From UHGV virus genome UHGV-0197628: a stretch of 14,528 nt of DNA; one strand, written 5' to 3'. A program made the position numbers and the translations under genes. Each line of letters begins with the position of its first letter. Position 1 is the first letter of the stretch. The stretch is from a virus. A model generated the notes under the pieces. It was not told where the DNA came from and did not search any database. It was given only the letters and a program-made list of their open reading frames with translations. Of the stretch, positions 6,294 through 9,505 are shown one piece after another.

Positions 6294-6334
6294 AACCGTA
6301 GCACGTCGTATGCAAGAAGATCGTGCTGCGGTTT
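6293..6334. terminator. Bidirectional terminator-like hairpin between convergent pin and the GIY-YIG gene (repeat copy A)
   Basis: 13-bp stem (aaaccgtagcacg / cgtgctgcggttt, one G-U pair) with a 16-nt loop. It starts at the last base of the pin stop codon and ends 20 nt beyond the stop of the minus-strand gene. Flanks are moderately T-rich on both strands. Confidence 0.55.
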
Positions 6335-6353
6335 ATGCTTATCACTTAAAGAC

Positions 6354-7127
6354 TCAAAAATTAGGTGAGTAACGGACCGGGGACATAGCTCCTTTTTTTC
6401 TTAATTCATCTGGTATTTTTTTTCCAAGATAAAGATTTGCTATTTCAGGTGGGGCTTCTCGACCTTCAAAACCATAGCGAGAACTTTGTGTTGCCTCAAA
6501 GTCCGGATCCTCGTCCCAGTATTTCATCGTAGGGAAATTTTCACGTGTTGATTTGAGCCATTTATCAGCAATGAAAACCCCTCGAACGATCCCCCTTACA
6601 GTAGCAAGAATGACTTCTGCTTGGCTGGCGCGAGAGACATTAATGCGCCAGCTAAATCGAACCGCATCATAAAGCTCTGAATCCTTTGCACTTCTGTTAA
6701 CGGAAATCATTAATGCTTTATGATGAAATGTTATGGTTTCGGGTTGATATGTTGCTATCAACTCTTTGACATGCGCGGCGCCGAATTCATTGCTGCCAGC
6801 ACCATTCATGATATTCGTTAACCCAGGGTAGGCATCAATAAGTGCTGCTTCAACTTCGTACGCCGTCTTTTCATCAGTCATTCCATGTCGATGGATGACA
6901 TGGATAACCTCAAGTCCTGCTAACCTTATTTCTCTAATTTGCTTTAGCTTGTTGCTCAGTAACTCGTCATCATCAGTCGCTGCCACTTCACCGCGCATAT
7001 GGGCAAATACGCGGTTACCTTTGCCTTTCCCTACATAGAAGGTGCTTCCGTCCCTCGGATCAATCAATCGGTATACATACCAGCCAAGGTGTTCAATTAC
7101 TCCAGAAGGAAACTCAGTAATATCCAT
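6354..7127 (-). CDS. GIY-YIG-motif nuclease-like protein with an uncharacterised C-terminal domain (candidate defence gene)
   Basis: 257-aa product from ATG 7125-7127 ([43 protein letters not shown]...). Residues 16-21 (WYVYRL) and 30-35 (FYVGKG) have GIY-YIG spacing, followed by R/H/E residues. The upstream TTG start of the track ORF (7178) was rejected. The gene is AT-rich relative to the tail module. Confidence 0.65.
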
Positions 7128-7312
7128 TTTGCAATATCTATGAATTATTTGTGAGACGTATATTAATGAACATTGCAAGGGCTCACAACCAGTAGTGTTG
7201 AGAAAACTATCGGGTAAATGAGGCTAATCCTTTGAATTTACATAGTAAAAAAAGATACTTTTCCTCATAGTGTGAGCTAATTTTATGTTTCGTTTGATGA
7301 TCGGACCGGTCT

Positions 7313-7352
7313 CAAAAACCGCAGGCACGTTGTATGCAAGAACGTGCTGTGG
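7313..7352 (-). terminator. Rho-independent terminator-like hairpin on the minus strand (repeat copy B), downstream of the FRG-motif gene
   Basis: Stem ccgcaggcacg / cgtgctgtgg (about 10 bp with one bulge) and loop ttgtatgcaagaa. On the minus strand it is followed by a UUUUUG run (plus-strand aaaaa at 7314-7318). Stem and loop are closely related to hairpin A (shared gtatgcaagaa loop). Confidence 0.5.
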
Positions 7353-7658
7353 CTGGCTGGTGAACTTCCAATAGTGCGAATATTGAATTATTTCCAGCTG
7401 TTATCGATTTTACGTATTTTTTGCATGAGAGGATTTCCACCACCTCCCACCGACCATCTATGGCTGTACGGCCCTATCTCTAGGGCTGCTATGTGCTAAA
7501 AGCAGACATTGATAACATTGAGATATGTTAATTTATAGGTAGCGGGTCAAGGCCACTGAAGATTCCAGTTTTTGACCCTGAGCCTGAAACCGTCCCCGAT
7601 GAGCAGTTCCACCTGAAGACTGCACAGTCTTAGTTTTCTTTGCCATTAATTTATCCAT

Positions 7659-8993
7659 TTATGATATCGATATATACTTTTTTGCAATTTCCGCTGCCGT
7701 TTTCTCCATGCTGGGATATACAGTGCTTTCGGAGATATTAAGCTGGGCCAGCTCTTTCAGAATTTTATTTTTGTTTGCTATCTCCACTCTGTTAAGAGGA
7801 AAATCAGCATCTGTTTCCGGTAAAATAGGATCAAGTCCGAACAGAAGAAATGCGCCTGCCTGAGACTGTATGCGTTCATTATTTATTTTAGCTTTAAGGA
7901 AAACAACTTTTTTTAAGTCATCAGAGATTATTTTGTTTCTGAAATATGATTTTTCATTCTGTATAAGGTCTGCAAGTTTATCAGTGAGTTCAGATAGCTC
8001 TACAGTATCTTTTCTGACATCAATGGAAGACAATTTTTCCAGCTCTTCGTAAGATAAAACTGATAAGTTTGCTATGCAGCTTACTGTATCTGAATCAAAA
8101 TATTTAATTTTCTTTCTGTTTGTTGAGAACGAAATCACCTGCCCATTTTCATTATGGTTCGAACTGCAAGCAAAATATAATGCTATCAGTGGGTTAGATG
8201 TGATATCCAGGAGTCTCGTAGGTAAGCCATAATGCTGCATGCGGACAAGTTTATCAATCGTAAATTTATCCTCCTTAAATTCATTTGGTCTTGCACTGAG
8301 TATCTCACGTACTAAGTCAGATTCTGAAGCAAGATGCCTGTATGTCCCGTTTTCATTCTTTCTGTAAAGAGAGGGGACAAGCTCATATGAGCTTTTAGAG
8401 TGTCCACGATAAAAGGTAACGAGGCCATCCGGACTGTTTTTTTTAATAAAGGCAAGATAATCCATGACATTCTCAACCACCTGATATGTTTGTTTTTTTA
8501 ATTTGATTGTACCTTTCAGACGGTTGTTTTTCTTGTTTAAACTAAGTCCTTTCAGAACAATATTTAAATCCTTATCTTTTACTGCCCAGTGTGTACGACT
8601 TAACCCGAAAGTTCCTAGTTCTAGGATTTCTTTATATAATGCTGTTTGGGGATTTGTTATTTCTCCAAAATCATGGTTAATCTTGAAGGAAAATAAAATG
8701 TCGTCACCATCTTTACGTAAATTTCTTATTTTCCCAAGCCTGATTCTGATGTACCTGTTTTTATCATTTTCAGTATCTTTCATATAAGTTTCGGTCATGA
8801 ACAACACAGGTAGCATGGCGAGTAATTTTAAGCTATCGGGTCTTACAGGTATTAATTTACTGTAAATATCGCTTGGGGTGCCTTCCAGCATGCGGGACAT
8901 CGAGAAGCTTTCCTCGCCTTCTTTAAGCCCAGGATTCATACACGGCCAGCGGTCAAAAACGTCCGGTTCTCCGGCCATGATTAAGTTAAACAT
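7659..8993 (-). CDS. FRG-motif protein (Abi-like), uncharacterised N-terminal ~170 aa plus central FRG-type domain (candidate defence gene)
   Basis: 444-aa product from ATG 8991-8993, with AGGAG 6 nt upstream on the minus strand; the track's start is the adjacent GTG. Contains F-Y-R-G-H followed by ...RMQHYGLPTRLLDITSNPLIALYFAC, which I recognise as the FRG-domain signature. The gene is AT-rich. Confidence 0.7.
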   Translation of the reverse strand: MFNLIMAGEPDVFDRWPCMNPGLKEGEESFSMSRMLEGTPSDIYSKLIPVRPDSLKLLAMLPVLFMTETYMKDTENDKNRYIRIRLGKIRNLRKDGDDILFSFKINHDFGEITNPQTALYKEILELGTFGLSRTHWAVKDKDLNIVLKGLSLNKKNNRLKGTIKLKKQTYQVVENVMDYLAFIKKNSPDGLVTFYRGHSKSSYELVPSLYRKNENGTYRHLASESDLVREILSARPNEFKEDKFTIDKLVRMQHYGLPTRLLDITSNPLIALYFACSSNHNENGQVISFSTNRKKIKYFDSDTVSCIANLSVLSYEELEKLSSIDVRKDTVELSELTDKLADLIQNEKSYFRNKIISDDLKKVVFLKAKINNERIQSQAGAFLLFGLDPILPETDADFPLNRVEIANKNKILKELAQLNISESTVYPSMEKTAAEIAKKYISIS

Positions 8994-9505
8994 CACAATC
9001 TCCTGAATTTACTCACTAAAGTCAGTGTGTTTTTATTATGTTGCATCATTGTGAATGAGGATGGCATGAGTTGTCCATGCTTGTTTGTCTTTCATAATTC
9101 ACAAAGTACATCAGCTTCTAATGTGTTTACGGTACGACCATGTGGGCGATGTCTTTCCATTCCTGAAAACTTCCTACTCAACCATGATGTATAAGCTGTA
9201 GTATGAAGTTTCTTGCCATCCAGTTAAGTAAATGTCTGCTCCTCGCTCACAACAGACATTCACTACAGTTGTGGCAGAAAGGTATGCATACTGGGTGGGG
9301 AAAGTGTGAAAGAAAGGAAGAATACTGCGCCGTTTGTCGTCGCGTTTATCTTCATTGGCTATGCAAGTCGTAATACAAGGTGGGACAAAACTGAGACACA
9401 TAAGGCCTCACAATGGCTTGCAAGGCTTTACATGTTTTGATGTGGTGGGACGTGTGAGCGCAGTGTTGATGGGGTAATGCTTTGAATTAGAAGCGGATTC
9501 TTATA

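Follow-up and report, generated by a model that had tools for sequence, protein, structure and literature searches.

A probable accessory interval at the attR end of an SfV/e14-type thrW prophage, with a predicted CMoRE restriction cassette and a candidate FRG-domain defense cassette

What lies between the last tail gene and the attachment (att) site of a prophage, and does this position serve as a slot for interchangeable defense genes? This question is raised by the viral genome UHGV-0197628, of which we analyzed one stretch of 14,528 nucleotides (the window), in which a tail module ends with the invertase gene pin and two genes on the opposite strand separate pin from an att core. An earlier note, made from the sequence alone, had proposed that this position is a swap-in site for defense cargo, equivalent to the positions of mom in Mu and mcrA in e14, and that the two genes are expressed from their own promoters in the lysogen. 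Our analysis gives a probability of about 0.8 that positions 6294-9505 form the accessory interval of an SfV/e14-type lambdoid prophage at thrW, which stretches from the hairpin of the pin module to attR and holds two independent single-gene cassettes. The following features define this interval:

6294-9505: accessory (moron) interval, bounded by the pin stop codon (6293) and the att core (9507-9552)
6354-7127, minus strand: predicted CMoRE/PD-T4-3, a single-protein GIY-YIG type IV restriction endonuclease (257 amino acids, ATG at 7127)
7659-8993, minus strand: FRG-domain protein, PDC-S15 candidate (444 amino acids)
5739-6293, plus strand: pin, Din-family serine invertase, final gene of the tail module (Pfam Resolvase, E 1e-51, and HTH_7)
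9507-9552, plus strand: att core of 46 bp, identical to the 3' end of the tRNA-Thr gene thrW; attR of the prophage and attL of the neighboring P4-like element

Based on the map of open reading frames and on domain scans, the interval contains two intact genes, both on the minus strand. The G+C content is 0.437 in the CMoRE gene, 0.369 in the FRG gene, and 0.402 in the whole slot, compared with 0.577 in the baseplate genes of the same prophage; it is 0.352 in the Hachiman genes further downstream. The description of the slot as filled by two AT-rich minus-strand genes after pin is thereby confirmed. The cargo also behaves as morons do: it is present or absent between otherwise adjacent genes, with an exact presence/absence boundary at a hairpin, and its G+C content is deviant (0.37-0.44 vs 0.58). 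ARAGORN detected no tRNA gene in the window, and Rfam at its gathering thresholds detected no RNA family there; the thrW fragment in the att core, a perfect 46-bp copy, was recognized by comparison with the annotated tRNA of a relative.

In relatives, the same interval holds different genes. A comparative catalog gave the following slot contents:

O157:H7: CMoRE, an AraC-family gene, and an insertion sequence fragment
14EC007 and strain 2452: PtuA and PtuB (Septu), and FRG
TUM10008 and E4: CMoRE, a Dcm methyltransferase with a type II endonuclease, DUF6650, and AbiTii
CT02 and 0H25: CMoRE and two unknown genes
Eco_23-2667, a different myovirus backbone: CMoRE, an unknown gene, and a PDC-S64-like gene
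Phage SKA5: DinI
SfV: gtrV/B/A
e14: McrA
HK97: empty

CMoRE is also carried by prophages at other sites, namely by a lambda-like prophage at ssrA, where it follows the tail-fiber assembly gene and is accompanied by the Dcm methyltransferase and restriction endonuclease genes, and by an SfV-like prophage at tRNA-Pro, where it is found with an O-antigen acyltransferase gene and DinI. Among 5,426 complete Escherichia coli genomes, the CMoRE cassette was found in 853, the FRG cassette in 41 (at ∼90% identity), and pin together with the hairpin, at a coverage of at least 80%, in 1,097. The whole window was present in 0 complete E. coli genomes of the collection, and parts of it were present in many. 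This variation in contents between related prophages supports the proposal of a swap-in site for defense cargo. The pattern that the earlier note had named as speaking against its proposal was absent: relatives do not uniformly hold both genes, and the CMoRE and FRG genes are almost always annotated as intact among the matches listed.

Several points weigh against this reading. The catalog is a sample of ∼20 loci and not a census. A blastn search of 50,697 deposited phage genomes with the CMoRE cassette (6334-7315) gave no match, and the carriers of the cassette were seen as prophages and not as isolated phages; because none of these phage genomes carries DNA of the cassette, its transfer inside virions is unsupported. 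A consensus scan for promoters and terminators returned counts no higher than in shuffled sequence, and the promoter matches were weak. Finally, the FRG protein is only a PADLOC candidate (PDC-S15) for defense, and a literature search found no paper validating antiphage activity of PDC-S15 or FRG.

What the FRG protein may do can be approached from its domains. The FRG domain scored 80.5 bits against a Pfam gathering cutoff of 25, and PADLOC matched residues 166-442 to PDC-S15 (E 1.2e-98). The Aravind group placed Frg in the ADP-ribosyltransferase (ART) superfamily and predicted that it is an NADase-type antiviral effector (PMC9503650). Full-length homologs of 440-460 amino acids are widespread in Enterobacterales and beyond and share many invariant residues. 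In the predicted structural model, a PUA-like (EVE/YTH-like) N-terminal module (residues 1-150) lies ahead of the ART-like FRG domain (residues ∼190-290), which is followed by a helical C-terminal region. A Foldseek comparison of the model with the PDB gave no match with E < 0.1, a sequence comparison with the PDB gave no useful match, and the N-terminal 165 and C-terminal 160 amino acids had no match in Pfam.

The N-terminal module is more informative when its occurrence in other proteins is considered. A word-indexed protein search with this domain returned truncated fragments only, and an exhaustive HMMER search was needed; this search yielded 70 cluster representatives of the module (residues 1-153; 8535-8993), 20 of which were covered by a scan for partner domains. 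Among these 20, the module, with a conserved R-T-H-W-A motif, was found fused to CAP12/Pycsar-type TIR domains (PDC-S35) and to AbiJ-type Abi_C domains, and was also joined to weak nucleoside deoxyribosyltransferase-like (TIR-related) regions. Proteins with the recurrent module include P0167, P0182, P0183, P0186, and P0194; in P0183 (760 amino acids), it is located between an oligonucleotide cyclase (E 1e-112) of the cyclic oligonucleotide-based antiphage signaling system (CBASS) type and an FRG/PDC-S15 region. Because the module is exchanged between NAD- and RNA-targeting effectors and can sit downstream of a cyclase, the simplest reading is that it acts as a sensor. Thus, its fusion partners suggest that the FRG protein combines a sensor with an NAD-targeting effector.

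We speculate that the FRG protein is a one-protein defense of the abortive-infection type, in which the PUA-like beta-barrel would sense a nucleotide or a modified nucleic-acid cue and would activate the FRG domain, which in turn may consume NAD+ or ADP-ribosylate a target. More tentatively, the protein could belong to an undescribed class of one-protein defenses, in which a PUA-like R-T-H-W-A-x-K/R sensor is combined with interchangeable effectors of the FRG/ART, TIR, or AbiJ type (Abi_C), some of them behind a CBASS-type cyclase; we regard this as possible and not as the probable outcome. If it were true, the two genes would both recognize chemical marks, on phage DNA or on nucleotides, and one would kill the DNA and the other the cell. 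The conservation of the full-length architecture and of many invariant residues across Enterobacterales and beyond, the carriage of the gene in two different prophage accessory slots, beside Septu or CMoRE, and the presence of the N-terminal module in TIR, AbiJ-type, and CBASS-cyclase fusion proteins all argue against the alternative that the FRG gene is not antiphage and could instead act as a regulator or as a toxin or addiction module, or be carried along in an inactive state. We assign this alternative a minor but real chance, considering that FRG is an unvalidated candidate and that, in another study, two other PADLOC candidate systems were inactive in their native host.

How the two cassettes came to lie side by side is suggested by their joints, which involve the following features:

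6294-6337: hairpin copy 1, terminator-like, with a 13-bp stem and 40 nucleotides (RNA fold -22.5 kcal/mol); left joint of the CMoRE cassette
7316-7358: hairpin copy 2; right joint of the CMoRE cassette
7359-7510: backbone segment, located directly after a single hairpin in 14EC007, strain 2452, phage SKA5, and HK97
7488-9257: FRG cassette as a mobile unit, i.e., the gene with ∼170 bp downstream and ∼260 bp upstream
9232-9506: conserved att-proximal arm of the thrW prophage, 94-95% shared with relatives that carry other cargo

In prophages with CMoRE, the cassette lies exactly between two hairpin copies; in those without CMoRE, one hairpin copy follows pin and is itself followed by the sequence that comes after copy 2 in the window. 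Slots with several cassettes have a hairpin copy or half-copy at each joint (pin/CMoRE, CMoRE/Dcm, and restriction endonuclease/backbone), and hairpins at cargo joints are displayed by loci L003, L009, L010, L011, and L015. In HK97, the hairpin and the next ∼70 bp are located between tfa and the sib site/attP. Overall, 2,584 of the 5,426 E. coli genomes contain the hairpin element, with up to five places per genome. Just past the hairpin, RefSeq annotates a 75-90-bp pseudogene as "capsid protein, partial" (∼7337-7420 in the window, 12339-12413 in L001, 10627-10716 in L017, and 8630-8716 in L018), which is probably an annotation artifact or an old fragment.

The FRG cassette has joints of another kind. 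At 90% identity, it is present in the lambdoid phage Tritos and in LF82 and XDL prophages, where a DUF977 gene and hokD flank it in an accessory slot other than the one described here (L006, L012, and L013). The ends of the cassette overlap the backbone homology by ∼20-25 bp, and a small hairpin at 9231-9260, AATGTCTG...CAGACATT, falls at its right end. Terminal inverted repeats of the cassette (7486-7510/9231-9255, 76% complementary) are unproven: the best-matching bases face inwards, and 15 other pairs are of similar quality.

Based on these presence/absence comparisons, we infer that the cassettes may move between phages through recombination at short sequences shared at their joints, i.e., the 40-nucleotide hairpin in the case of CMoRE and the 20-25-bp overlaps in the case of FRG; such an exchange would explain all of the joints. 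Hairpin copies or half-copies at every joint of consecutive cassettes, and an element found in as many as 2,584 of 5,426 genomes, could also point to a dedicated, integron-like site-specific system that acts on the hairpin. However, no recombinase is specifically associated with the hairpin, the FRG cassette joints differ from it, and a shared terminator that provides microhomology accounts for the pattern, and we therefore consider a dedicated system quite unlikely. Terminator-flanked morons are established for lambdoid phages.

Beyond the att core, the window contains a second element in tandem, and the two genes in the slot adjoin its integrase and its Hachiman system:

9714-10901, plus strand: P4-type tyrosine integrase of the second, tandem element (Pfam Arm-DNA-bind_3, Phage_int_M, and Phage_integrase)
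10885-14345, plus strand: HamA and HamB (Hachiman), cargo of the P4-like element (PADLOC HamA, E 8e-135; HamB, E 1e-279)

Public assemblies were searched for the exact FRG protein (49 indexed blocks, 24 contigs read, and six places shown). In 6/6 places, the block from pin through CMoRE and FRG to the att core was 95.8-100% identical to that in the window, and in five of them, at least 99.9% identical. What follows the att core differs:

L019, L022, and L023: bare chromosome (yagP'/paoD...)
Window and L021: P4-like integrase and Hachiman
L024: P4-like integrase and two reverse-transcriptase genes
L020: P4-like integrase and an unknown 274-amino-acid gene

L021, a metagenome contig, is 100% identical to the window across 5658-14404. 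Because the same block abuts either bare chromosome or P4-like elements with differing cargo, CMoRE and FRG are part of the prophage. All thrW relatives that we examined have the att core on the right-hand side of the cargo. This core separates two elements, the second of which, the P4-like satellite, is integrated in tandem at the same tRNA and varies independently. That both genes belong instead to a P4-like island or a chromosomal defense island would fit their proximity to the P4-type integrase and Hachiman, and P4-like elements are known as carriers of defense hotspots (cited in PMC9519451); however, the att core at 9507-9552 lies between the genes and the integrase, the identical pin-CMoRE-FRG block is found without a P4-like element (L019, L022, and L023) or with other P4-like cargo (L020 and L024), and CMoRE also follows tail genes in the prophages at ssrA and tRNA-Pro, making this explanation highly improbable.

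In relatives, the P4-type integrase is followed by psu/ogr/primase genes. In O157:H7, the cargo of the P4-like satellite after the integrase is an ABC-three-component system. In TUM10008 (L003, 1-6046), the feature at the left end of the prophage is annotated as a 112-nucleotide tRNA-Ser, which ends in the 46 bases of the thrW att core; across this feature, another integrase adjoins genes for a pPIWI-associated nuclease and a DUF4365 protein, a possible sign of a further island at this site.

By sequence, the first gene of the slot encodes CMoRE/PD-T4-3, a restriction enzyme already known to act on modified phage DNA. Its product matched Pfam LEM-3_GIY-YIG (E 2.4e-14) and the PADLOC model PD-T4-3 (E 2.7e-140, model covered from 1 to 255 of 256). 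All 257 residues aligned with the O157:H7 protein in PDB 9U75 (257/257, E 3.7e-172, ∼98% identity), with five visible substitutions, two of which are in the acidic loop region. The Y17, Y19, and Y31 residues of the GIYxY-YIG motif are present in the 257-amino-acid product, and the end-to-end alignment with 9U75 covers the two-domain single-protein layout, an N-terminal nuclease with a C-terminal sensor.

PD-T4-3 has been renamed CMoRE and is a type IV modification-dependent endonuclease that degrades DNA containing 5-hydroxymethylcytosine (5hmC) or glucosyl-5hmC (5ghmC); the same work defined the GIYxY-YIG motif and described a nuclease at the N terminus, a sensor of the modification at the C terminus, and an acidic loop with an autoinhibitory role (PMC12923530). 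Expressed from its native promoter, CMoRE conferred ∼10^5-fold protection against T2, T4, and T6, and both cleavage of 5hmC/5ghmC DNA and protection against T-even phages were reported for the O157:H7 and APEC (avian pathogenic E. coli) O1 proteins (PMC12923530). At high concentration, a Capnocytophaga homolog of CMoRE degrades Mom-modified Mu DNA, too. By analogy with this published work on a ∼98% identical protein, the C-terminal domain of the protein encoded in the window would bind DNA with 5hmC or glucosyl-5hmC, the N-terminal GIYxY-YIG nuclease would then degrade that DNA, and a lysogen may be expected to restrict T-even-type phages.

The comparison with mcrA made in the earlier note, which was positional, is functional as well because CMoRE is a type IV modification-dependent nuclease; CMoRE and McrA are both type IV nucleases against modified cytosine. 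GIY-YIG is a classic fold of homing endonucleases, and the cassette shows precise presence/absence polymorphism at a fixed site, but a free-standing homing endonuclease, i.e., a selfish insertion with no defense role, is hardly credible for a protein with ∼98% full-length identity to CMoRE, for which modification-dependent cleavage, crystal structures, and ∼10^5-fold protection against T2, T4, and T6 have been published.

Both genes are transcribed towards pin, on the strand opposite to that of the tail-fiber and pin genes; because of this orientation, read-through from the tail-fiber/pin genes cannot make their mRNAs. Hairpins lie on both sides of the CMoRE cassette, and the promoter matches upstream of both genes are weak. 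In our own relaxed scan, matches reached 8-9/12 at best and included the following candidates:

7144-7188, minus strand: candidate sigma-70 promoters for CMoRE (TTGTGA-17-TAATAT and TGTTCA-17-AATAAT), weak, with 8/12 matches each
9048-9077, minus strand: candidate FRG promoter (TGGACA-18-CACAAT), a consensus match only

The FRG gene has a good AGGAG Shine-Dalgarno sequence ∼7 nucleotides before its ATG. In the clinical strain NILS69, deletion of PD-T4-3 sensitizes the host to two phages, and in an RNA-seq survey, a PD-T4-3 gene was expressed and pH-regulated in cultures under ordinary conditions, i.e., without prophage induction. Expression from own promoters, as the earlier note had suggested for both genes, is thus supported by published work for CMoRE, since the native promoter of the O157:H7 allele suffices for protection and deletion in a native host sensitizes; FRG may also be expressed from its own promoter.

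Which phage carries this slot is evident from the tail module and from a complete relative. Upstream of pin, the window contains the following features:

44-3539: Mu-type baseplate genes (gp44-48 homologs)
3543-5712: tail-fiber gene and invertible segment with alternative fiber ends and assembly genes
3832-5672: invertible tail-fiber segment (alternative fiber C-termini and assembly genes), seen in both orientations in 99.8-100% identical prophages
3832-3846 and 5658-5672: inverted crossover cores TTGGTTTGGGAGAAG, 15 bp each

Compared with the window, segment 3832-5672 is flipped in L019, L020, L021, L022, and L024 and unflipped in L023. The occurrence of both orientations in near-identical prophages suggests that Pin, which relatives annotate as PinE of 184 amino acids, is active. 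The complete relative, a prophage of O157:H7 ECP19-598, has the order proA-thrW-int-xis...lambdoid early genes-lysis-terminase-HK97-type head-Mu-type tail-tail fibers-pinE-GIY-YIG, with a tyrosine integrase adjoining thrW, a P27-type terminase, and a capsid of the HK97 type. The baseplate genes had matches in the phage collection at 96-97% DNA identity, to the Shigella phages SfV, SfI, and SfIV and also to SfII. The matches to SfV, SfI, and SfIV take in the att core, with gtr genes in between, and in the att-proximal region, homology to SfV covers 9381-9552. In SfV, the order is tail-fiber assembly gene, terminator, gtrV-gtrB-gtrA (minus strand), attP, and int. With an att core formed by the 3' end of thrW and a tail module homologous to those of SfV, SfI, and SfIV, the prophage is a lambdoid phage of the SfV/SfI/SfIV type whose tail is of Mu type.

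A Mu-like transposable prophage is ruled out by the integrase at thrW, the lambdoid early genes, the terminase, and the HK97-type capsid of the complete relative and by the att core in the window. Of the Mu frame, the position stands (gin-com-mom-right end), but the whole prophage is not Mu-like and, as the complete relative shows, its tail alone is of Mu type. The true homologous frame is the gtr slot of SfV, the tfa-attP interval of lambda/HK97, and the e14 slot, and Mu is a positional analogy only.

Altogether, the slot illustrates a known phenomenon well, prophage defense hotspots being already established. CMoRE is already fully characterized, and the less ordinary parts are the predicted sensor-effector design of the FRG protein, which provides a concrete and testable architecture for the candidate FRG/PDC-S15, and the hairpin joints. 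The hotspot is precisely bounded and easily anchored, by the hairpin after tfa/pin and by the att arm, in a very common group of E. coli/Shigella prophages; cataloging its contents could reveal new defense genes, and it is also in this interval that the serotype-converting gtr genes of Shigella are located. At thrW, the prophage end with CMoRE and FRG and the P4-like satellite with Hachiman look like one island, but their parts exchange independently.

Among known systems, the CMoRE gene of O157:H7 (PDB 9U75 and 9U8D) is the closest counterpart, being likewise a single gene, ∼98% identical over 257 residues and located directly after pinE of a thrW prophage; the allele in the window differs in a few substitutions, and its activity is predicted from sequence. 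In e14, the tail end is homologous (ymfQ, stfP/tfaP, tfaE/stfE, and pinE, with 88% DNA identity between e14 and the window in the 3' part of pin), and a type IV nuclease gene similarly lies between pin and attR, in the order pinE-mcrA-icdC (attR). However, McrA is an HNH enzyme that is encoded on the plus strand and unrelated to CMoRE, and e14 integrates in icd and not in thrW. SfV, SfI, and SfIV belong to the same phage group, use the same thrW att core, and carry minus-strand cargo in the same interval; in contrast to the cargo in the window, theirs modifies the O-antigen and has no action inside the cell, and SfV has neither the invertible segment nor pin.

Fixed accessory positions in temperate elements are known to hold interchangeable defense systems in P2, in P4, and in the prophage hotspots of the E. 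coli pangenome (PMC9519451). The slot described here shares this interchangeability of defense at a fixed position, and the P4-like neighbor in the window is itself an example; unlike the P2 and P4 hotspots, it is found in another phage family and at another position, namely the late-operon end/att junction of SfV/lambdoid phages. In Mu, gin-com-mom similarly places an accessory gene linked to DNA modification after an invertase at the genome end, but Mu is transposable and has no att site, and mom protects the phage's own DNA and does not attack foreign DNA. Finally, the FRG protein resembles the PDC-S15 and PDC-S35 candidates and CBASS TIR effectors, in that its FRG part matches PDC-S15 and its N-terminal module occurs in PDC-S35/TIR and cyclase-FRG proteins; it differs from CBASS-related systems in that no cyclase gene lies beside the FRG gene here.

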